Source: a phage. From it: DNA of 47,489 bases. The position numbers and the translations under genes are program-made. This document shows, one piece after another, positions 1,926 to 45,366 of the stretch; the stretch's first letter is position 1, and each line of letters begins with the position of its first letter. The notes under the pieces are model-generated. The model was given only the letters and a program-made list of their open reading frames with translations, did no database searches and was not told the DNA's origin. The DNA is taken from NCBI GenBank assembly GCA_025699765.1, contig GCA_025699765.1_4134.1; one strand, 5' to 3'.

Positions 1926-2990
1926 TTACTTGTTTTGGTAGCGTACCCATGACGGCGTTTCAAGTTCAATCTCGCTTGCATCGCCAGCGTATCCAGGCCA
2001 AACATCCATTTCAGAGCAAGCCTTGTAAGTGTGGACTACGCTAATGTACTGACTGCGCCCGATCCTGATTTGCTCCATCGTCATACGATAAGCAAGGGCG
2101 ATGTAAGGCTCTTTTTTCTCCTGTGCCAGCAATCGAACTACGATCGGGATATCTTCCGGAAAGTCTCCTTCAAAAGCGCCAGCCTGGATTGCACGTCGTA
2201 GCAGGTCATGCTGCAAGGCCATTTTCAGGTAATATCCGTGATTGTATGCCAGTCGCGGGAACTCTAACGGGTTGGCGCTCATTGTAGTTTTGAAGTCAGT
2301 GATAATTAGCGCTTCAGGGAAAATAACGTCTTCAAATACAGGATCGCCGTTCTCATCATAACCAGTCAGCACTCGGCCTGGAACATTCTCTTTGTAGTCC
2401 AGATGGTCAAGACGAACCTTAACTTTGACGCCGGATATCTCACCGAAGATTGAGATCTCACGCTGCGCCGTTTTGCTGTTGATACACGCTTCATGATCGG
2501 GGTTCTGTTCAAGTATAGCTCTCATCTTCATGCAAGCATCATATTTATCAGCGTCAACCAGTTGCTTTCCTTCAGCGCGAGCCTCAGCTTCAGCAATAAG
2601 TTCAATAAGATATTGAACATTGAGATCTTCACCACAATCAACCATCATTTTGATGAGGTCAGGGTACTGCTTTCCTGATGTACCTTTCAGGCCGAATGAT
2701 TTTAATTTCGATGCAAGAGCGGCTTGTGACGTAATGAGATCCTTAAACTCTGACGGAGCCGGGCAACGGGCATACGATGCAGTAAACAGATCGCGACTCT
2801 CAAAGTTAGTATGCGACTGAGTACCAAATTCCAGCGCTTTAGTTGTCTCGTTCTTCTTGAATCGCCAGTTAGCCGGGCAAGTCTGATAGATTTCAGCAAG
2901 GCTAGATCCGCTTACATACTCCGCAGCCCAACCTTCATTGCTGTGATACTCGTCATTAGAAAGCTGACTTGATGTGAATACTTGGAACAT
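1926..2990 (-). CDS. Recombination exonuclease, PD-(D/E)XK (RecE/YqaJ-like)
   Basis: 354 aa with a D...ITDFKTT (D-x-K) nuclease motif; sits directly upstream of erf and ssb as in phage recombination modules; GGAG site before the ATG. Confidence 0.65.
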   Translation of the reverse strand: MFQVFTSSQLSNDEYHSNEGWAAEYVSGSSLAEIYQTCPANWRFKKNETTKALEFGTQSHTNFESRDLFTASYARCPAPSEFKDLITSQAALASKLKSFGLKGTSGKQYPDLIKMMVDCGEDLNVQYLIELIAEAEARAEGKQLVDADKYDACMKMRAILEQNPDHEACINSKTAQREISIFGEISGVKVKVRLDHLDYKENVPGRVLTGYDENGDPVFEDVIFPEALIITDFKTTMSANPLEFPRLAYNHGYYLKMALQHDLLRRAIQAGAFEGDFPEDIPIVVRLLAQEKKEPYIALAYRMTMEQIRIGRSQYISVVHTYKACSEMDVWPGYAGDASEIELETPSWVRYQNK

Positions 2991-3517
2991 TGCGTTTATC
3001 TCCTTCGTTTACGATGAATCCATTATAGCCATTAACAGCGTTTAGTCAATCGAATACATGTAATTGGTGTGTAATCGCGTGTCTATATTGCTCAAGTTAC
3101 AACCAGCATCAGCAGAATCAATGTCTTAAGTAGATTTTTATGCGCTGTCTATTGCGTAACACTTGTAACCGCTTTTTCTTAGAAATACAGAGATACCTAC
3201 AAATAGAATCCACATTGATTAAATTTTGAACATACATGATAGAAACTTGACGAATCAATCAAATCACCTGTTACACGATAGACAACTGTTACACAACAAT
3301 AATTATATATATAAAGCTAAAATTAAATATTATATATCTATATATATTATATAGAGTTTTTATCATATCTACCTGCGGTCGGATAGGGTCGATTTTGTAA
3401 CACCCCTTCCAGTGACAAAAATATACACCTGTTACACGAAAAATTTTGTAATCCAGCTATTGCAATAAAAGTAAATGCGACATACAATGCAATCACACTA
3501 ACGACGAGGACATACAA
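2991..3517. promoter_or_regulatory. AT-rich divergent control region with short direct and inverted repeats
   Basis: 527 bp non-coding stretch between divergent genes. CTGTTACAC occurs three times (about 3270, 3286, 3430), TGTCTAT twice, and there is a (TA)n-rich core at 3300-3360 containing tatatatattatataga, also found at about 32735. Confidence 0.45.
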
Positions 3518-3748
3518 ATGAAAAAGTTAATCACCATTATTGCTGCTGCATTCATCCTGACTGGTTGCGCTCAGAATCTTAAAAATGGAGACTGCGTCAC
3601 TTACGCTTACGGATCTTGCATGATGCGATTCGTTGACGGTAAGAAGGTTCCGGCTGGCGAAATCGATATGCGATTCAAAGGTCTGTCATCCGACGACGAT
3701 CAGGGTAACTTCAGCGGTAAGGTATCAATCAAAACCAAAGAGTGGTAA
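3518..3748 (+). CDS. Small lipoprotein, possible Cor/Llp-like superinfection-exclusion protein
   Basis: N-terminal signal peptide with lipobox LTGC (MKKLITIIAAAFILTGCAQ); 76 aa; lies next to the tail-tip gene, as for cor in phi80/N15 and llp in T5. Function inferred from size and position only. Confidence 0.5.
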   Translation: MKKLITIIAAAFILTGCAQNLKNGDCVTYAYGSCMMRFVDGKKVPAGEIDMRFKGLSSDDDQGNFSGKVSIKTKEW

Positions 3749-3750
3749 TT

Positions 3751-4707
3751 ATGGGACAAGGAATATACATAAACCTAAATGACGGTCGTCCAGCAATGGA
3801 GATAACCTCGGGACTTCGCGCCCCGTCATGGTGCGGACCAATACAAGCGGACGGGGTTGATTCATCTGGATCGGTTTTTGATTTTGGTCTGCAAATGAGT
3901 CCAGGATCTACCGCTTTTTGCCTTCCATCTCAGGCTATCTACATAGACGACATGTATTATATCCCGGAGGTGTATTATTTAACCAGCTTTCAGAAGGTTA
4001 ATGATTCAACAGGGAGAATAACGGTAGGTAATTTTAACGGTCATCGTGGAAGGAGAATGAGATTTTATGGAAACTGTTACGAAATCCTCCCAGCTCAGGC
4101 TGGAAATCAGGGGATGCTTGTTAGCGATTCAACGAACTTCGCGGCGATACCGAATAACGCCAGGTTGATGAGCGCGGCATTTGTTGGAGGTATCCAGGTT
4201 AACGGTCAGGCTCAGTTGCCAGTCCAGGGTGTTCCTTTCGGTATGTGGGATAACCCAAATGTAACACTGGAATCTGACGGGAATACAATATGGTGCAGAG
4301 ACGCAAACTATAACGGTATTGATGACGTTGGCGCGAGCGTATACGTTCAACTCGTAATATTTAATAACACTCCACCACCTCCCGGTCCGGGAATCACTAT
4401 GAGCAACCCTGCTGGTCAGATCGTTTTCTCAAGCGTTCGACGTCCTTTTGTTCTCGGCGGGACTATGGCGATAAATGACGGGTGGCAGTGGTGTGGTGGA
4501 TTTTTCCCAATACTAAGAACAGGTACGATATGTAGAGTTACAGGTGGATATAATAACATTCGATACAAGGGCGTGTGTATGAGCGGCGGTAACGTGAGAA
4601 GCGCCCCCGGAACAAGAGTAGGTAACTATTCCACCCAAAGCGGAGCGCGATTCCCCTTCAATATAAACATTTCAATGCCAATTCCTTTCACTCCAAACAT
4701 GTATTAA
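3751..4707 (+). CDS. Hypothetical protein, 318 aa, co-transcribed with the lipoprotein
   Basis: Long ORF starting 3 nt after the lipoprotein stop, with a Pro-rich PPPPGPG segment and no signal peptide. No family recognised. Ends at a bidirectional terminator. Confidence 0.5.
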   Translation: MGQGIYINLNDGRPAMEITSGLRAPSWCGPIQADGVDSSGSVFDFGLQMSPGSTAFCLPSQAIYIDDMYYIPEVYYLTSFQKVNDSTGRITVGNFNGHRGRRMRFYGNCYEILPAQAGNQGMLVSDSTNFAAIPNNARLMSAAFVGGIQVNGQAQLPVQGVPFGMWDNPNVTLESDGNTIWCRDANYNGIDDVGASVYVQLVIFNNTPPPPGPGITMSNPAGQIVFSSVRRPFVLGGTMAINDGWQWCGGFFPILRTGTICRVTGGYNNIRYKGVCMSGGNVRSAPGTRVGNYSTQSGARFPFNINISMPIPFTPNMY

Positions 4708-4735: not shown

Positions 4736-7700
4736 TTACCAGACACCAACAACCACTCGGCCCCCGTTAGGTAGGTTAACCGTGATCCCGTTATTGTTTA
4801 TCTGAACCGTATTGTTTGTCCCGTTGAATGCAAACGATCCGTTGTCTGCATACAAAGCACCCCTTACGGTTGCGTTCATGAAGTAAGCTGCACCATTCTT
4901 GTTAATATGCCATCCTTGATTTCCATCCCAATTGTTAGACTGAATCGCGTTACCAATCATGGCGTTAGTAATAAATCCATCCTTGATAATCGCGCTATTT
5001 AGAATAACCTGGCCATTCTCAACAACGAATGGGTACTGAGTCTGACCATTCATCCCTGTCATGATTGCAAATCGTGATGCCTCAAACAAAATCTGCGCCT
5101 TAACTGCTGCGCCTGAACCAATCAGAGACATAGCCATGCCTGCACTGTATTCCTGCCCATTATACTTAAGGCCCATCTTGACGCCGTACATTGCACCAGT
5201 CGAATCCGCATTGCTCCACGAATCAAGTTTTTGAGAAAGTGCTGCCTCATTATTCCCAAGCCTCGCGCTTAACGACAAGTCAGCTTGCGTTCTCGCCTCA
5301 GTCTCGTTTGCTATAGCCTCTCTGATATCAGTCAAACTTGCCTGGATATCATCACCAATCTCTGCCTTGAGTTGGTCAATTTCACGCGATAGCGCTCCAG
5401 TCTCAGTCGCTATAACTTCACGCAATTCGCTATTGCTTGCGCTAATCTGATCGTCAAAACTTGCCTTCAACTGCTCGATCGCCGTCACTCGCGCCTGCGT
5501 CTCATCAGCAATAAGTTTCAGTGATTTCGTGTACTCAGCTTTTCGTTTTCCGTTCTCCTTCTTCATGTAGATCGCGTCTTTATCATTGGCGAGCGCGTTT
5601 TCTATTGCTGCCTCTGCGTTAGCTGCGTTCTGCGCCGCGTTGTCTGTTGCGTTATCAACAAGCCACTCGTAACCCGGCGAGTTTTCGATATCGACAGAAA
5701 TCTCTCCGATGATATCGTCAACGTTTGTTGATGCCATACCTCTGACAAAATCAGTCCACTGAGACACGTTACCGATCCTGTCAACCGTCCTTACCCGATA
5801 CCACACAATATTCCCTCCAGGCATCGGTGAGTGATAATACTCATGCTGCGGGTACGGAATCAAAGAAAGCAAACTTGCGTTATCCACTGTTCCATCCGGT
5901 GACTGTTGCAACTCTGTATAGGCCGTATCTCCAGAACCATCAGAGAACCCCCATTTTGTACGGATACCAAAAACAACATCATCCGTAGCTGTAAGGTTAA
6001 TAGGTCGTCCCGGCTCACCTTGTTTACCCGTCAGCGTCGCAGCTACGATATTTGACCATCCTGAAGTCGTACCGGAACCAGCGACAGATCGAACGCGAAC
6101 CTGATAGTTGCCAGCGTAAATCCCTTCAACATAAACCTCCTTGTTTGCCGTCTGCGGGACGTTCTGCCAGTTGCCATTATCCTTTCGCCACTGGACGTCA
6201 TAGAAAACTGCGTACGGAACTTTATCCCAGCTAACAATCATCGTTTCTACGCTCATCCCCTGGACGATTCGTGATTCTGAGGACACTTGCACGTTTTCCG
6301 GTCTAGGGATCTGATCTGGTTCAACGATGCTAGTCGGTCGGTCGTCGATATTAACTCCGTAATCAATCTCATCGTACTTGTTAGGATTGTACTCCACCGC
6401 CGTGATTTTGTAGGTAAATTCCTCATCATCATCGCCCTTATCGATTTTTGTCACGACGTACTGCTGTAACGCAATGTCGGTGCGGTCGATAGCGAATACC
6501 GTGTTAGGCTTCACAGGAAAGCCAAAGCCAATGTTAACCTCTATAGTCTTACCATCCGCACTAACACTTGAGATTGTGCGCTTCACTGGCTTGCCATCTG
6601 GCTTATTTACGATAATAAAGTCACCAGCGCGTGCATCCACACGGAACGGCAAGAAAATCTGACTACCGGATACTTCGAGCAAGCGCCCTGATAGGTTCAT
6701 CGTTAAGTTACTTGACCAGAAGTTATCAGCTATTGCCACAACATCTCCGATTGTCGGGATCATGCCCTCAAGTCCGGTAGCGAAGTTTACCGTAGTGCTG
6801 CGGAGGTTAGTTTTCAGAATCCATCTCCCGCGTCGGTTAGCTTCACTTCGACGTGTGCACCCGATCGCTGTAATGCTCGTTACGTTATTCCCGAACCGTA
6901 GAGTTGCCTCTCTGTCGAATACTGGCTCAACGTCCTGCTGATACATGTTTTGTTCATCATCAAACATAACGTTGCACGTCGTGTACATACTTTTCTCGCT
7001 TGCGAACGTGTAGGAGAAGTCACCATTAACCACGTTGTCGTTAGTGAAGATGTACGCAGGTTCACGCGGCCTGTCGATGATTACCGAAATGCTTTCACCA
7101 TTCCAAAAGCTCATTCCACGGAAGATTGAGCAAATATCTCGAATCACCTTGTACGCATCAGTCTGTGACTGAATTATCACGTCGCAAAGGTAGCGAGGCT
7201 CAGTACCGCCTTTACCGTCAGGAACCATCTGATCACAATATTGCGCCGCCTCATATAGCGCCCATTTATCGACAGATATTCCAAGCTCTTTCTGATCAAG
7301 CCCATAACGCTGATTAATCATCAGGTCATAAAGTACCCAGGCAGGATTATTAGTCCACGCCTTCTTAAAAGTTCCATCCCAATTTCCGTTATAAGTTCGT
7401 GATTCTGGATCATAGTTTGACGGAACGTTTACAATCTTCCAGCGCTTACGAATTGAGATCGTAGGTAACTGGTTTGGGAACATCTTCGAATCGAACTCGA
7501 CGAAAAGAAGACCAGTCAGAGGGTAACGGAATTTGGCATCAATCACCTCGGCATAGCTCTTTACCTGAATCGCGTCAACAACGTTCGAGTCGTTAGAGTC
7601 TGGAGTTTTACGAACGACTCTGAATATCACCTGATTGTTGAAGTTAGGTAGGTTTACACGCCTGCTTCGATCGTAACCTGACATTGTTTTGCCTTCGATT

Positions 7701-31932: not shown

Positions 31933-32448
31933 TCACAGTCCACACTTTTCGATATGCGCCTTCATCTGGCGAACCAGGTCGCGCACGGTGCTTACAGTCA
32001 CGTCGCCTTTCTCAAGGTCATCAATATCAGGAACAAACGAATCCAGACAATCGGCTATGCTAACTTTTTTCCGACTACGGCGCTTCTTCACTGGAACCTC
32101 TTCGTCAGTAACGGTAACGGTTATCATTGTGATTGCCGACTCATTACGGCCCACCTTCACCTTTGCCACCTTGCCGTACTTGCAGAAGTGCCGGGTAATA
32201 ATCGGAGTGATGAAAGCAGACTTAAATCGCTTCTCCACCTCCTTCCCGTTCGAGGTCAACCATGTTGATGCGCCTCGCTCAATCTCTTCCTCTGTAATAT
32301 CCCGATCTCGGAAGTAAAATTTTACCGCCTCTCTCGCCATATCATCAGCCAAGAAAGAGAACTCGGTCATGCCTTTGTCGCGATACATTTTGTCACAGGT
32401 TAGGCGAATCATGTCGGTGATTTTTAATTCCTGATTGGTATTGCTCAT
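31933..32448 (-). CDS. Hypothetical protein, 171 aa (first gene of leftward early operon)
   Basis: First ORF leftward of the AT-rich control region; basic patch KKRRSRKK. Confidence 0.55.
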   Translation of the reverse strand: MSNTNQELKITDMIRLTCDKMYRDKGMTEFSFLADDMAREAVKFYFRDRDITEEEIERGASTWLTSNGKEVEKRFKSAFITPIITRHFCKYGKVAKVKVGRNESAITMITVTVTDEEVPVKKRRSRKKVSIADCLDSFVPDIDDLEKGDVTVSTVRDLVRQMKAHIEKCGL

Positions 32449-33134
32449 AATATAACCTCTTTGTCTATTCGTGTGTAAATGGCGTCATAACGTGTCAACA
32501 ATTGCCATTGTGACGGCGCAATACAGATATGTCAACGCCTGCGAGCCAATTTTAAGCCGTGTAACATTTGTCTAGCTGTCTAGAGTCACTATAGAAATAT
32601 ATAGCTCCCAAAAAAAGTACTGTATATATAAACATGCAGATAGAAATATGCCAACAGTACGCTAGACAATGTAAGACAACTATACACAACTATTACAATA
32701 TAATTATCTATATATATAAATAAAAAAAACACTATATATATTATATAGATACATATATCTATATGTATATTTAGAGGCGTCACAGTGTGTAATTTTGTCA
32801 CAATGGCGATTCTAGACAAATATTACAGTCGTGACAAGTTAAAGTGTAATCGATAGCACTTTTTGCTAAAAATGGGGATTACTACCAGGCGAACCGGGTA
32901 ACACTAGATCCTCCCTCTCACAATCATTGCATTCTCAGCAACAAATCAACCAACTGTTGCACACCATGCAATAATCACGTTTCATCATTCGAGATCAATC
33001 GGGATCGCAATTATTCCAGATATTCCAGCATTGATGGAATAATGAGCAATTATTGGAATAGCATTTTTTGCTAACGACTTAGCTATGTTGGCAGGGTATG
33101 ATTCATCACATCAACCAGCCAGGAGAATAACAAG
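32449..33134. promoter_or_regulatory. AT-rich divergent control region with nested inverted repeats and two TAGCA-N5-TGCTA sites
   Basis: 686 bp non-coding. Inverted pair gccattgtgac (about 32507) / gtcacaatggc (about 32798); TGTCTAG twice (about 32568) and CTAGACA (about 32660, 32812); (TA)n-rich core 32690-32780; palindromes at about 32862 and 33053. Confidence 0.5.
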
Positions 33135-33515
33135 ATGACAGATTCAAAACTTCAGGCAGCAATTGACCGTGCAAATGAGAAAGGTTTCAAAGTTGTGATT
33201 TACAATCACCGGCCTGTCGGGATAATCCGCCCCCGCAACCGAGTTGTTATTACTCAGCGCGATACCGGGATCATCATTACCAATATTTTCACCATTAAAG
33301 AGCATCAAATCATGATTGATTATATCAATCGACACGTCGAATCGGTTGAGTTCGGAAAGCTGGACGGTGACGAGAAGGATGCTATCATTGAAAACCTTCT
33401 CGAAGAGGTGGGCCTCGCGTTTGAAGAGCGACCGGATAACGGAACGACTCGTTGGGATTGTGATAAGCTGGACGCAATAAACCGCATCCGTGAAATCCTG
33501 GAGGAAAAATTATGA
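33135..33515 (+). CDS. Hypothetical protein, 126 aa (first gene of rightward operon)
   Basis: ORF with AGGAGA site, directly after the control region. Confidence 0.55.
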   Translation: MTDSKLQAAIDRANEKGFKVVIYNHRPVGIIRPRNRVVITQRDTGIIITNIFTIKEHQIMIDYINRHVESVEFGKLDGDEKDAIIENLLEEVGLAFEERPDNGTTRWDCDKLDAINRIREILEEKL

Positions 33516-34739: not shown

Positions 34740-34819
34740 ATAGCACGATTTGTTAATATTGCCGCAAGGTCATTTGTTAAAGTGGCCTTGTTCAAGATAA
34801 CCAATCAGGAGTGAACGCA

Positions 34820-35236
34820 ATGAAATCCATCAAACTTAAATGTACTTCCGCAGACAAAATCACAGGATTTGAAGTTAACAACCTTTACAAAGGTCGAGAG
34901 CGCTACGATGGAACTCGTGAGGTTAAGTTAAAGTGCGGTAAGTATTTAAAACTTGATAAGCATGATGAATTACAGATTCACGGATCTGATGAAATCTTCT
35001 TCGCAAAATTCACTGAACTTAAAACCAAAACACTCAAGTGTACCGGGCTTGACCATCGCAACCCAATGAAAAAATCATTCAAAGTTGGCAAGCGTTACCA
35101 GGTTGAAAGCGGTCGCGCGCTCGGTATTGTTGCTGGTTACATCTTTGATGAGGATGGTTGCCGCTGGAATTTATTTCGTGCGGATGTCGGATTCATCATT
35201 GCAGACGGCACAACCTTTGAGGCCAAATACTTATAA
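34820..35236 (+). CDS. Hypothetical protein, 138 aa
   Basis: Start refined to MKSIKLK with AGGAG site. Confidence 0.5.
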   Translation: MKSIKLKCTSADKITGFEVNNLYKGRERYDGTREVKLKCGKYLKLDKHDELQIHGSDEIFFAKFTELKTKTLKCTGLDHRNPMKKSFKVGKRYQVESGRALGIVAGYIFDEDGCRWNLFRADVGFIIADGTTFEAKYL

Positions 35237-35309
35237 CCAATAGCACTTTTTGCAAAACGCGTGTACCATTGGCGGTGTATCATTCACACCGTCAACTAAG
35301 GAGTTTATT

Positions 35310-36881
35310 GTGATGTTTAATATTAAGCCAAAACTGAATTACCAACAGATTATTGAGATCGCAAATAGCACTGGAGTGAATCCGGTGGCGATCGCAATTC
35401 GTGAAAACAGTTACGGGGATTCAGTTTCTTTTTGGCAAGATCCGATCGATATCAACAGCGGAAACGATAAGTTCCCTCTGATTTCGTTAGGTGGCGATAA
35501 CCTGGTATTCGAATATGCAAAGGCAAAGGCTGAGTCTGTACAGTTCCCGGTTTCATCCGCGTATGCTCATTTTATCGGTTGCATCTCAGCCGCGATGCTC
35601 GGGAAGTTTTGGGTGCAATATCATGGAGAAGAACAGCCGACAGCGCTTTACATGGTAATCAGTCAGCCACCATCAACAGGTAAATCAGCGATTAACTCAG
35701 CGGCGATTACACCTATGCGTGCGGAGATTCAGCGACTGAATGAAGAGCGCAAAAAGGAACGTATCCGTTTAACCAGTCAGCTACGTCAGGTCGAGAAGGA
35801 AATAAAAAACGATCCGAAGGGTAACACGACGGCGGCTCTGTACGAGGACAAAGAAAAACTGGAAGAGAAGATCAAGAAGATGGCTGATATTGTTTTCGCG
35901 GTATCAGATCCTACACCTGAAGGTCTTGCGAAAGTGGCTGCTGTTCAAGGTCACTTCTCCGTAATCTCTGATGAGGCAACAGCAATAAATACATTGCTTG
36001 GACTGACCTATGGCGGTTCAGATAAGAAATCTAACAGTGAGCTTATCCTTAAGGCGTGGGATAAAAACCATATGGAGGTCGCGCGTTCAAATCAGGACAA
36101 CAACTTATCTCTTTGCCCGGTCGGTTCGATCTGCGTCATTGCGCAGGATGAAACAATCAAGGGTATCATGGATGCAGGCCAGCGAGGTATCGGTGTATCC
36201 GAACGTTTCTTGTTGGTTCGCGAGGAGCCGCTTTTAGGTACTCGTATTCTTTGTGATGAAAATGGCGATGCGCTGTATAAGGAAGTCGATCGAGGATTGG
36301 TTAGTAAATATTATCGACTCGTGCACAACATCATGAAGGAGGACAACGTTGTTCTCTCTGTGAGCCGTAATGCTATGCGTGAATTAAACCTTGCTCGCCA
36401 GGCGATGGAGCCTGATTTCGCTGCCGGGGGGAAATACTCTCACTCAATGCTTCGCGGTCATCTCGGCAAGTTCGATAAGCACGCTTTGCGTATTGCTTCA
36501 GTTCTCCACACGATCAAGAATTGGGAGGGTGAATCACCGAACCGTTCCAACCGTGAGATTGACCTTGAAACAATGCAGGAAGCGATCATGATCTTCAATG
36601 AGCTTTCCAGGACTTATCTGTCGTCTGCCAGCGCTGCCGGGTATGCTGGTGATGAGGCTGAATCTCGTAAGCTGATTGATGTTATCACTGAGATCGCGAA
36701 GAAGAACAAAGGCCGCGCACCTATTCATAGTATTGTTGCAAAGTGCCGGAACGTTACGCCGTTCAACGGTCAACAGAAAGTATCTGAGCGAATCGACAGC
36801 CTTCTGATTACGCTCGAAGAGATGAACTACACTTGCCGAATTGATGATATTGTTTTCATCAATCCTCGACTGATGGGTTAA
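35310..36881 (+). CDS. P-loop-motif protein, about 523 aa, unknown function (possible replication ATPase)
   Basis: Degenerate Walker-A-like SQPPSTGKSA and a long coiled-coil stretch; AAGGAG site before GTG/ATG at 35310/35313. Confidence 0.5.
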   Translation: MMFNIKPKLNYQQIIEIANSTGVNPVAIAIRENSYGDSVSFWQDPIDINSGNDKFPLISLGGDNLVFEYAKAKAESVQFPVSSAYAHFIGCISAAMLGKFWVQYHGEEQPTALYMVISQPPSTGKSAINSAAITPMRAEIQRLNEERKKERIRLTSQLRQVEKEIKNDPKGNTTAALYEDKEKLEEKIKKMADIVFAVSDPTPEGLAKVAAVQGHFSVISDEATAINTLLGLTYGGSDKKSNSELILKAWDKNHMEVARSNQDNNLSLCPVGSICVIAQDETIKGIMDAGQRGIGVSERFLLVREEPLLGTRILCDENGDALYKEVDRGLVSKYYRLVHNIMKEDNVVLSVSRNAMRELNLARQAMEPDFAAGGKYSHSMLRGHLGKFDKHALRIASVLHTIKNWEGESPNRSNREIDLETMQEAIMIFNELSRTYLSSASAAGYAGDEAESRKLIDVITEIAKKNKGRAPIHSIVAKCRNVTPFNGQQKVSERIDSLLITLEEMNYTCRIDDIVFINPRLMG

Positions 36882-36885
36882 TTAT

Positions 36886-37293
36886 ATGCTTCTTCTTTTA
36901 GATCTGTTCAGGTTCTGCGAAGGTTACGACAAATACACTCGTCAGCACATAGCGAAATTTATATACGCCCACAAGGAAAGTGAGCGATTTGCTAAGGCCG
37001 CCGGGATGACTCACCGTGAATTTACAAGCGCGCTATCTAAGGAGTTTTGCGCTCGTTGCGTTACTGATGGTTACTTGGATCGTAAGGATGGATTTTACTG
37101 GTGCAAGGGAAAGATCAAGCGCCCGGTAATGATGAAGCTGATGTGTATTGATGGCTACAACAATCGATATACGTGGGAAATGATGCATATTGGAGAAATG
37201 AGTGATGATGAATTGTTTGGCGAACGTAGAAACGTTGATAGATCGGAACGTCGAATTGTGCGCAAGACTCCAGCTTACGAAAGAAGAATTTGA
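36886..37293 (+). CDS. Hypothetical protein, 135 aa (C-terminal part doubtful)
   Basis: ORF starting 5 nt after the previous stop; its basic low-complexity C-terminus overlaps a better-looking ORF in another frame. Confidence 0.35.
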   Translation: MLLLLDLFRFCEGYDKYTRQHIAKFIYAHKESERFAKAAGMTHREFTSALSKEFCARCVTDGYLDRKDGFYWCKGKIKRPVMMKLMCIDGYNNRYTWEMMHIGEMSDDELFGERRNVDRSERRIVRKTPAYERRI

Positions 37294-37427: not shown

Positions 37428-37819
37428 TTTTCGCCCTTACGAATTGAAAAATAAACCAGCAACAGACCAATGAGAACGAGGGTCCAACCAACTATAGGAT
37501 CATACCAGTTTCCGGGCTTAGTCACAGTGATGCTTTCAGCGTTAACCGTGTTAGCCTTAATGGTTGACACTTCAATTGACTTCTTCACGGAAGAGTCAAC
37601 CTTTCCTACATTGGACTTTTCAACTTTAACATCTCGCTTATCTTCGGATTTTGCGGTTACTCCTGCTAATTGCTTTGTGTTCTCCTCTCCAATCTGTGCT
37701 GTAACTTCCGGTTTAGATCCGATTAAACCGCTCAGGGCAGATGGCATCGAGCAACCGGATAGAGAAATAACACCAACAGCCACTACAATCGCAATGCATG
37801 TTTTCTTCAGTTTCATCAT
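37415..37819 (-). CDS. Unimolecular spanin (lipoprotein with C-terminal transmembrane anchor)
   Basis: N-terminal signal peptide with lipobox LSGC plus a C-terminal TMD ([15 protein letters not shown]); about 134 aa, the architecture described for T1 gp11; last gene of the lysis cassette. Confidence 0.7.
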
Positions 37820-38304
37820 AATTCCTTAACGCAATACGCGTATTCTTCAGCGCGTCTGTTCTTGAGTCCTCTAGACACTTCGCGCTTTTTGGTTTTTGGG
37901 TTGTAGTAGTATACCCATCGCCATAACTGATTGCACGCTTCCCTGTGCTTACCCTGATTTATTAGCTTAAGCATTGTAGAAGATCCGAACGCGCCAGTAC
38001 CAACGTTGAAAGTAAAGCTATACAATGACGCGCGCATCGTTACAGGAATATCAACATTCACCTTTTTGTCTACGTATCTCTGAGCAACGCCGATGTGTTT
38101 TATCAACAAAGCATCGCATTCTCGCTTAGTGTATTTCTTACCAGGTATGACGTCCGGCCCGGTTATTCCGCTGCATACGGTAGGGACTCCGGCGATATCG
38201 TAATAAACCTCGTATTCTACACCTTCGATTCGTTCCAGTAGGGTAGGCGTCAACATCAAAGCTGCCCCGATCGATGCGCCTATAACGTTATTTTTTAAAC
38301 TCAC
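37816..38304 (-). CDS. Endolysin, phage lysozyme family, with N-terminal SAR-like segment
   Basis: Resembles P21 R21-type lysozyme ([24 protein letters not shown]; [25 protein letters not shown]; CNQLWRWVY), recalled from memory. N-terminal weakly hydrophobic Gly/Ala-rich stretch [17 protein letters not shown]. Confidence 0.8.
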
Positions 38305-44819: not shown

Positions 44820-44913
44820 GGCTATTTAATCCTTTGAATCGTTGTATCGTTTACGCTATAATACACGACATACAGTAAACGTTTTTAGCAAAAAGTGCTA
44901 CAGGAGAATTAAG

Positions 44914-45366
44914 ATGAATATGCAACGTATCGCAGAGTCAACTGGTGAAATCGATAAACGTCACATTAATGGTAACAACGGAACGCGACGCGGTAAAGAC
45001 AAAAAGCCTCGGCAGCGCTGCGGCTTCTATATTCATAAAGAAGAAACACGAGCGGGACTGCGAGCGCGACTTGACGCTCTTATTGAATATTACGGCGGCC
45101 CAGCGGCCTGCGCAAAAGCTCTGAAGGTTAGCAATCAGACCGTGCAAGGATGGAAAGATCGCAACATGATTTCGTGGCAAGGTGCTGAAGCTGCGCATCG
45201 TGCTTACCGCCGTCAGGGGTGTAAAGGATTCCGCGCCGCATGGCTGCGATTCGACCTGAAGTTTGACGGTAACGGCAAATGCCTTGAGAAGAGATGCAAG
45301 AATAAGAAATTTATGCGCGTCGTGAAGAAGGAAGATATCGGAACGACCAATAGCATTTTTAGTTAA
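44914..45366 (+). CDS. Cro/YdaS-like HTH DNA-binding protein (candidate transcription regulator)
   Basis: YYGGPAACAKALKVSNQTVQGWKDRNMIS resembles Cro/YdaS-type HTH; basic N-terminal region. Start refined to MNMQRIA with AGGAGA site; palindrome elements lie on both sides. Confidence 0.55.
   Translation: MNMQRIAESTGEIDKRHINGNNGTRRGKDKKPRQRCGFYIHKEETRAGLRARLDALIEYYGGPAACAKALKVSNQTVQGWKDRNMISWQGAEAAHRAYRRQGCKGFRAAWLRFDLKFDGNGKCLEKRCKNKKFMRVVKKEDIGTTNSIFS

Follow-up and report, generated by a model that had tools for sequence, protein, structure and literature searches.

Replication origins and operators that act in cis are a familiar kind of viral element, and we describe here a noncoding module that appears to belong to this kind. 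It is present twice in a 47,489-nucleotide stretch of phage DNA (GCA_025699765.1, hereafter the window), which is the nearly complete genome of a T1-like phage (genus Tunavirus, family Drexlerviridae): once in region A, at positions 2991-3517, and once in region B, at 32451-33136 (the "32.7-kb region"). Several described systems share parts of its layout. In the Bacillus phage SPP1, the origins oriL and oriR, the initiator G38P, and the boxes of this initiator have been defined experimentally, and oriL lies inside a gene. In herpes simplex virus (HSV), a eukaryotic virus, oriS is a 45-bp near-perfect palindrome served by the UL9 protein. The R-loop origins oriF and oriG of phage T4 consist of an activator-dependent promoter with a good -10 element, which fires into an unwinding element of about 50 bp. 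In the satellite phage P4, ori and crr carry the iteron TGTTCACC in both orientations, and a primase-helicase binds this iteron through its winged-helix end. The OL and OR sites of phage lambda, finally, are 17-bp palindromic operators that overlap promoters and are not accompanied by an AT core. By analogy, SPP1 oriL/oriR and HSV oriS would be the closest functional counterparts of the T1-like module, and lambda OL/OR the closest transcriptional one.

The likeness to each of these systems is partial. As in SPP1, a virulent siphovirus, 2 nonidentical copies lie tens of kilobases apart and combine what would be initiator boxes with an AT-rich region; unlike in SPP1, both copies are noncoding, the repeats on the 2 sides of the core are inverted, and the initiators are candidates only. 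HSV oriS likewise has an A+T spacer with inverted boxes on either side, to which an origin-binding helicase binds; divergent promoters surround the origin, and the genome contains more than one copy of it. The phage core, however, is only weakly palindromic, with arms that are 77% complementary, and UL9 is unrelated. In addition, the single-strand DNA fold of 3262-3405 is no better than that of shuffled sequences (z = -0.16), which leaves a cruciform or hairpin unsupported. A TATAAT conserved at one edge of the AT core recalls T4 oriF and oriG, but the -35 or activator position is not conserved in module A. P4 also has 2 separate cis regions that share one short iteron; there, however, crr is located about 4.5 kb from ori and the alpha protein is an SF3 helicase fusion, whereas in T1-like phages the primase is a protein of its own and the helicase is of the MCM-like DUF3987 type. 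With lambda, the module shares the presence of 2 sister site clusters at early promoters and a possible reader of the Cro/CI type, as a Cro-like protein is encoded in the window. Its units differ from the lambda operators in that they are 6 to 7 bp long, phased, mostly direct, and grouped around a 64-bp AT block.

On sequence grounds, A and B are sister copies of a single conserved, very AT-rich, noncoding module of T1-like phages. The G+C content of the 2 regions is 33% and 36%, compared with 45% for the window, and in a nearest-neighbor profile of duplex stability, the 2 least stable 60-mers of the entire genome coincided with the A core (3299-3358, z = 5.45) and the B core (32698-32757, z = 5.48). 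The next low-stability site, which is unrelated, reached a z of 3.2. The same pattern of 2 outliers was found at corresponding map positions in phages TLS (216 and 28823) and SRT8 (5890 and 36266). Each core contains the 17-mer TATATATATTATATAGA, which is found at these 2 places only (starting at 3339 and 32733) and was absent from shuffled sequences; the original prediction, made from the letters alone, had named it as common to both regions. Local alignment of A with B, scored against shuffles, gave a z of 8.2 over 82 nt in the same orientation in the window, 11.7 over about 310 collinear nt in SRT8, and 6.6-8.6 in TLS. The order of the parts is the same in both copies: a right-pointing array, the AT core with the 17-mer, an inverted hexamer, and further hexamers, with the left array of A aligning with the TAGACA/TATACA/ATTACA series of region B (Table 1).

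The paired arrangement extends to the rest of the family. Positions 2900-3600 match 65 phage records at 90%-96% identity, among them T1, SH6, UP30, and LHE71, and a distant blastn search against phages found DNA similarity restricted to Tunavirus, with the exception of about 80 nt by recE in SRT8 and IME-JL8. As the DNA can no longer be aligned beyond Tunavirus, the family-wide comparison was anchored on proteins. Anchoring on RecE yielded 46 Drexlerviridae loci (43%-99% protein identity), and in 45 of these the least stable 60-mer of the 6-kb locus ended 268-327 bp upstream of recE. With the DUF3987 helicase as anchor, 78 loci were obtained, and both loci were captured in 18 genomes; a nineteenth pair dropped out solely because its locus was cut off short of the expected B position. 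In all 18 genomes, the B core stood out as an outlier (z = 4.2-6.3) at 3.3-5.2 kb upstream of the helicase gene and A aligned with its own B (z = 7-28), the 2 being oriented alike in 17 cases. Collinearity, the 2 stability minima, and the pairing in 18 of 18 genomes thus bear out the proposal that the 2 elements are copies of a repeated functional module. The same proposal had placed each of them at a divergent transcription boundary, which is true of this genome but incidental to the module: in TLS, module A lies between co-directional genes (in order, the tail fibre gene tspJ, a terminator, the module, P_recE, and recE), so that a divergent boundary is not required. The repeated module therefore stands, while its dependence on such a boundary does not.

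The AT core is flanked by short repeats. CTGTTACAC occurs exactly 3 times in the 47.5 kb, always on the + strand (3268, 3286, and 3429), against a mean of 0.20 copies in shuffles, none of 100 of which reached 3. These 3 direct copies had been reported in the original prediction, as had TGTCTAT at 3080 and 3146 (+), to which a third, inverted copy at 3278-3284 can be added. Genome-wide totals of such short 7-mers are at chance level (TGTCTAT: 5 copies against 5.8 expected), and it is their concentration in the 2 intergenic regions that is striking: 4 of 5 copies of TGTCTAT, 4 of 4 of TGTTACAC, 5 of 6 of TGTAACA, 8 of 13 of TAGACA, and 7 of 7 of TATATATA are found there. Compared with 2,000 dinucleotide shuffles per region, GTTACA occurs 6 times in A (0.51 expected, P = 0), TAGACA 8 times in A and B combined (0.89 expected, P = 0), and TATATATA 3 times in A (0.15 expected, P = 0.003).

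The repeats can be described as one hexamer family (GTTACA, TAGACA, ATTACA, and TATACA), in which same-strand members spaced 9-11 bp apart form phased arrays. Only 8 same-strand pairs with this spacing exist in the 47.5 kb, 5 in A and 3 in B, where block-wise shuffles gave a mean of 0.29 and a maximum of 2; no other promoter region of the window has a counterpart of these arrays. Similarly, all 5 phased pairs of the SRT8 genome are located in its A and B. The units, of 6-7 bp, are shorter than the 17-22 bp of classical iterons, while the arrays are conserved and flank the core. A separate cluster of 4 hexamer-family matches is found at 37801-38100, outside A and B, and shows no 9- to 11-bp phasing.

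Alignment of 15 Tunavirus genomes revealed how strongly these parts are constrained, using nucleotide diversity as the measure and the third codon positions of recE (0.196) as a neutral proxy; the first and second positions of recE have a diversity of 0.014. The AT core, at 0.012, is about 16-fold less diverse than the third positions, with 4 of its 64 columns varying, and the central block around it, at 0.024, about 8-fold less diverse (17 of 156 columns). Values for the promoter regions are 0.03 (P_recE) and 0.02 (P_cor), whereas the left spacer (3061-3214) and the right arm (3371-3459) reach 0.10 and 0.126, with 45% of the columns of the latter varying. Within this variable arm, the hexamers are nonetheless kept in 14 to 15 of the 15 genomes. 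The same holds for each unit of the left array, while the 17-mer is kept in 14 genomes, and TGTAAC at 3164 and 3396 and GTTACAC at 3288 and 3431 in all 15. The conserved unit is the 7-mer GTTACAC rather than the 9-mer CTGTTACAC, as the CT prefix of the latter is replaced by CA, TT, or CC at copies 1 and 3 (by CA in 9 of 15 genomes at copy 1). The nearby related copy GTAACAC at 3156 reads GTAATAC in 11 of the 15. In module B, the core shows no variation, not even in relatives with diverged flanks. As judged from these alignments, the core and central block are under purifying selection, and the hexamers are fixed inside variable arms. At position 3334, the window has an A where all 14 aligned relatives have a C, a rare change in the near-invariant core that lengthens its TA run.

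This degree of conservation bears on the reading that the repeats are functionless chance features of an AT-rich spacer, to which we give practically no credence. While TA-rich DNA easily yields TATA-type repeats and the genome-wide 7-mer counts do not exceed chance, the hexamers remain enriched after correction for composition, the phased pairs are exclusive to the 2 regions, and the paired architecture is family-wide. The results on diversity, the recE locus, pairing, and phasing effectively refute this reading, and the original prediction, which would have given way had the repeats proved to be unconserved chance features of AT-rich DNA, is upheld by the contrast between 0.012 in the core and 0.196 at neutral sites.

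It is likewise very unlikely that the block is conserved because it encodes a small protein or a noncoding RNA. An open reading frame (ORF) at 3118-3258 (-) is open in 15 of 15 Tunavirus genomes and has been annotated in T1 as the hypothetical protein CPTT1_049, with a ribosome-binding site. Its start codon is TTG, however, and its substitutions are distributed 9:13:12 among the codon positions, suggesting that it is probably no gene; moreover, it lies mostly in the less conserved spacer. In relatives, frameshifts or stops interrupt the 2 other ORFs. As for an RNA, no Rfam match was found up to an E-value of 1, and RNAalifold, run on the recE-sense strand of 11 genomes, gave a covariation score of -1.28 with 1 of 75 pairs compensatory, the "helices" it drew being inverted repeats of the DNA. 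The shuffle comparison given above (z = -0.16) points the same way.

Beyond Tunavirus, the architecture is kept while the repeat itself changes. The repeats that flank the core are GTTACA/TAGACA in Tunavirus, ATTACA (A) and TAGACA (B) in SRT8, GAACAA and AAACAA in TLS-like phages, GTTACA and GTATACA at locus L046, and AAACAAA and TAAACA at locus L037; in these last 4 genera, too, they are oriented as inverted repeats around the core. When the 2 Tunavirinae genera are compared, module A of each resembles the B of the same genome more closely than it resembles the other genus's A; the picture in Tempevirinae is mixed. T1, SRT8, and TLS all infect Escherichia coli and yet carry different repeats, which makes a phage-encoded, co-evolving reader most likely; the genus-specific repeats and the likeness of A to its own B in Tunavirinae fit such co-evolution. 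We consider it quite likely that the module is a functional, paired cis-element that is read by a phage-encoded factor. Reading of the hexamers by host sigma-70 or another host factor was considered and rejected, given that the repeat differs among these E. coli phages.

Table 1. Positions of the features of modules A and B in the window. Strand or orientation is given where assigned.
Feature	Position	Strand	Description
P_recE	3022-3049	-	Sigma-70-type promoter, TTGACT-16-TATAAT; 11 of 12 consensus positions
Promoter-proximal array	3059-3085	-	ATTACA, ATTACA(C), TAGACA in recE sense, 10-11 bp apart; phased at 3059/3070/3080
Left spacer	3086-3214		Relaxed constraint; GTTACA 3096 (+), TAGACA 3146 (-), GTTACA 3164 (-), integration host factor (IHF) consensus AATCAATGTCTTA 3116-3128
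Central constrained block	3215-3370 (156 bp)		Holds left array and AT core
Left array	3270-3294	+	GTTACAC, TAGACAA, GTTACAC with a 9-bp period; abuts and faces the core; includes the first two CTGTTACAC copies
AT core	3297-3360 (64 bp)		Nearly pure A+T with one GC island at 3316-3317; contains the 17-mer at 3339-3355
Right arm	3371-3459		Variable sequence with invariant hexamers
Right-arm TGTAAC(AC)	3396-3403	inverted, faces core	Conserved hexamer on the far side of the core
Right-arm TATACAC and GTTACAC	3422-3437	+	9 bp apart, towards cor; holds the third CTGTTACAC copy; phased pair 3422/3431
Right-arm TGTAAT	3447-3452		Conserved hexamer
P_cor	3460-3488	+	Sigma-70-type promoter, TTGCAA-17-TACAAT; score 11.2
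Module B	32640-32860		Left array of TAGACA 32663, TATACA 32681, ATTACA 32692
Module B core	32698-32775		AT core with the 17-mer at 32733-32749
Module B right side			Inverted ATTACA 32788; TAGACA/ATTACA 32813/32822

The strong sigma-70-type promoters of region A are found solely at its edges and face outwards, both with suitable spacing between their hexamers. P_recE is the top match both in a consensus scan and in position-weight scoring (14.0), is near-invariant in the 15 Tunavirus genomes, and coincides with a promoter annotated in SA32RD, Chapo, and T1; a TTGACT...TATAAT pair is also present upstream of recE in TLS, SRT8, and L046. For P_cor, the promoter annotated in SA32RD lies 21-23 nt further upstream (about 3437-3467 of the window) and is thus not the same hexamer pair. 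The repeats and TA core hold no strong promoter of this type, their best scores (about 7-9) being those of the background.

The main alternative to the reading favored below, possible if at clearly less than even chances, is that the module serves transcription only. The hexamer arrays would then be operators or activator sites of a phage regulator, for instance the Cro-like protein encoded at 44842-45366, which would turn on or off not only P_recE and P_cor but also the early promoters in region B. The role of the AT core would be that of a bend, an UP-like element, or two weak promoters facing each other, and the whole would parallel lambda OL/OR. Consistent with this, arrays lie directly upstream of both P_recE (3 copies, 10-11 bp apart, ending 9 bp short of the -35 and invariant or nearly so in the alignment) and P_cor (2 copies, 9 bp apart), and in TLS the genus-specific repeat is found within and just upstream of P_recE. 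Also, TAGACA and GTTACA match the -35 consensus TTGACA at 5 and 4 of 6 positions, and GTTACA-16 nt-TATAAA in A is collinear with ATTACA-17 nt-TATAAA in B. In most genera, a recE-sense TATAAT is kept at the core edge, the distance from core to recE is fixed family-wide, and the core is invariant at the level of single bases. Region B, in turn, is the counterpart of the junction that joins the 2 ends of the T1 GenBank record; as Orf77 and Orf1 of T1 run in opposite directions, both early operons begin there. On the other hand, candidate promoters in the core score at background level, the recE-sense TATAAT is preceded by a variable -35 position, and TATATA or TATACA takes the place of this TATAAT in several genera. 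In P_recE, about 270 bp downstream of the core, recE has a near-consensus promoter of its own, and the other promoter regions of the genome do without phased arrays. Finally, a role in transcription alone leaves unexplained why both sites have such an extremely low stability in 3 genera.

The reading we favor, tentatively and at somewhat short of even odds, is that the module functions as a replication origin, with an unwinding element and binding arrays, of which there would be 2 per genome. A phage-encoded DNA-binding protein would oligomerize on the phased arrays and bend or load the AT core, which would then open, after which the phage helicase and primase would start replication at the core using the host polymerase. 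Module A (about 3270-3403) and module B (about 32660-32830) would in this case be the 2 origins of a T1-type genome, and through the promoter-proximal arrays the same protein would tune transcription of recE and cor. By computed stability, the cores are the easily melted AT-rich elements that an unwinding-type origin calls for, and the phage encodes replication genes of its own: a DUF3987 helicase, a zinc-ribbon primase, an SF2 helicase, and SSB, as well as a Cro-like helix-turn-helix (HTH) protein. The region A module is the best current candidate for a T1 replication origin or, failing that, for a dedicated gene-control site.

The binding protein might be the MCM-like DUF3987 helicase, which has a winged-helix end, one of this helicase's 2 small HTH neighbors, or the Cro-like regulator (44842-45366) encoded beside the primase; the zinc-ribbon primase is a further candidate initiator. 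The DUF3987 protein is encoded at 35250-36881 (E = 3e-42), about 2.5 kb from the region-B core, and has been annotated as a "putative ATPase" in T1. The DUF3987 family has been predicted to comprise replicative helicases that are MCM-like and carry a winged helix at the C terminus (PMC4889955). The gene in the window is flanked by those for the 2 small proteins (34811-35236 and 36886-37293), the T1 homologs of which carry HTH or RipR-like annotations from HHpred; no Pfam domain was found in either.

Published work on T1-like phages reports that no origin was found (PMC11447400; PMC7718038), and our literature search returned no transcription-start or origin-mapping data for the T1 family. The module is undescribed in the literature reached, which did not include the 2004 T1 genome paper (PMID 14972552), where these AT-rich regions may be mentioned; the KanT1 paper contains nothing on noncoding regions. 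A consensus scan detected no DnaA boxes (TTWTNCACA) in A or B, and a distant blastn search against 72,556 plasmids gave no match, indicating no likeness to a plasmid origin. No GATC (Dam) sites are present in region A, which is uninformative given its AT content.

A number of observations weigh against an origin. GC and AT skew, calculated in 2-kb bins for the window and TLS, gave no replication signal and follow gene orientation. The candidate binders diverge evenly (50%-82% identity among the window, SRT8, and TLS), so that none of them is singled out. Base-by-base invariance over 64 bp is more than a pure unwinding element needs and suggests sequence-specific reading, as of promoter elements or protein sites. 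Arrays that abut promoters, as they do at P_recE (9 bp from its -35) and at P_cor, are a typical sign of transcription factors; the near-constant 268-327 bp between core and recE suggests coupling to recE expression rather than a free-standing origin, and the recE-sense TATAAT at the core edge may mark a promoter inside the core. The low diversity could partly stem from recent recombination sweeps, and the motifs of the hexamer set were picked after the regions had been inspected, with phasing playing no part in the choice. Furthermore, binding, unwinding, and initiation at the module are steps that we infer from sequence. Origin function and regulation of the neighboring promoters are nevertheless compatible, as an origin-binding protein with a dual role is a common arrangement.

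A third role, as an accessory terminase (pac) site or an entry site for RecE/Erf recombination, is improbable. Restriction-fragment mapping has placed the pac site of TLS at about position 1 of its record, about 215 bp from the TLS B core (PMC11447400), and we could confirm the TLS HindIII site at 5876 in the sequence. The T1 record starts at a similar distance from the T1 B core, and throughout the family the recE-erf-ssb operon is found in tight linkage with module A. Classical work on T1, however, indicated a single pac site with limited permutation, with which a second copy at a distance of 29 kb is difficult to reconcile. Moreover, what A and B share is the AT core and the arrays, not the pac-proximal stretch; the proximity of the B core to pac in TLS is the only connection, and nothing links region A to packaging. 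Homologous recombination by RecE/Erf, for its part, needs no specific site. The evidence does not decide among the iterons, paired promoters, and recombination hotspots that had originally been put forward. Close pairs or triplets of GATC sites are present at the starts of the T1 and TLS records (32993 and 33003 in the window; the last 50 nt of the TLS locus, L064), and the TLS group coincides with the mapped TLS pac site. They recall the pac site of P1, which is controlled by methylation.

Returning to the origin reading, its widest form would have both modules act as origins in T1 and in Drexlerviridae generally, with the protein that reads the arrays also gating recE, cor, and the early promoters. 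We give this extension clearly less than even chances. The reader may then be the winged-helix end of the DUF3987 protein or an HTH neighbor, its co-evolution with the arrays would keep the 2 copies of one genome alike, and the start of replication would be coupled to the switch in early transcription.

T1 is one of the 7 classic T phages and a notorious contaminant of laboratories and fermentations; to our knowledge, neither its replication origin nor its early regulatory circuit has ever been located. The module turns this question into 2 testable targets, each spanning some 160 bp and following a defined repeat grammar, and the genus-specific repeat variants offer a natural swap by which the reading protein could be identified. 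If the modules are indeed origins, T1-like phages would provide a tractable bacterial model for the recruitment of MCM-like (DUF3987) helicases to DNA.

The module is distinct from another repeated noncoding element of the same phage family, the 21-nt direct repeat aaATAGCACnnnTTGnTAAAA, about 20 intergenic copies of which have been described, each about 76 nt upstream of a gene, and the function of which was left as an open question (PMC11447400). The module differs from it in sequence, in architecture, and in having 2 copies. The window contains 20 copies of this repeat (ATAGCACnnnTTGnTAAA) against 0.5 expected, 2 of which are located in the right arm of region B (32853-32870 and 33058-33075), and none of the 20 matches to ATAGCACnnnTTGnTAAAA (allowing up to 2 mismatches) falls between 2991 and 3517.

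Sites for host factors were also noted. No LexA site of the form CTGT-N8-ACAG was found in a consensus scan of the window. A LexA-box-like sequence, TACTGTATATATAAACATGC, is present at 32618-32637, about 60 bp to the left of the B core, and is invariant in the aligned relatives, even in 2 with diverged flanks; the window copy ends in CAT instead of CAG and has 4 mismatches to the palindromic consensus. The corresponding site of SRT8 reads CACTGTATATATACACAG and fits CTGT-N8-ACAG perfectly. An early promoter may be under SOS or LexA control. The IHF consensus in region A is one of 4 matches in the window and lies in the spacer, outside the core; across the 15 relatives, its variation is confined to unspecified positions and the final purine. 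Several other genera have AATCAA-N4-TTA in the middle of the AT core.

As for the genes around the 2 regions, region A is bordered on one side by recE, encoding exonuclease VIII (1926-2990, -), which is followed by erf and ssb, and on the other by a gene for a Cor-type lipoprotein (3518-3748, +). Region B lies between an ORF at 31933-32448 (-) and one at 33135-33515 (+). Among Tunavirus genomes, cor (about 3575-3760) is found as 2 deeply divergent alleles, which split just past the conserved signal peptide. The sequence beyond cor differs between the alleles as well, creating a sharp mosaic joint at the right edge of region A.

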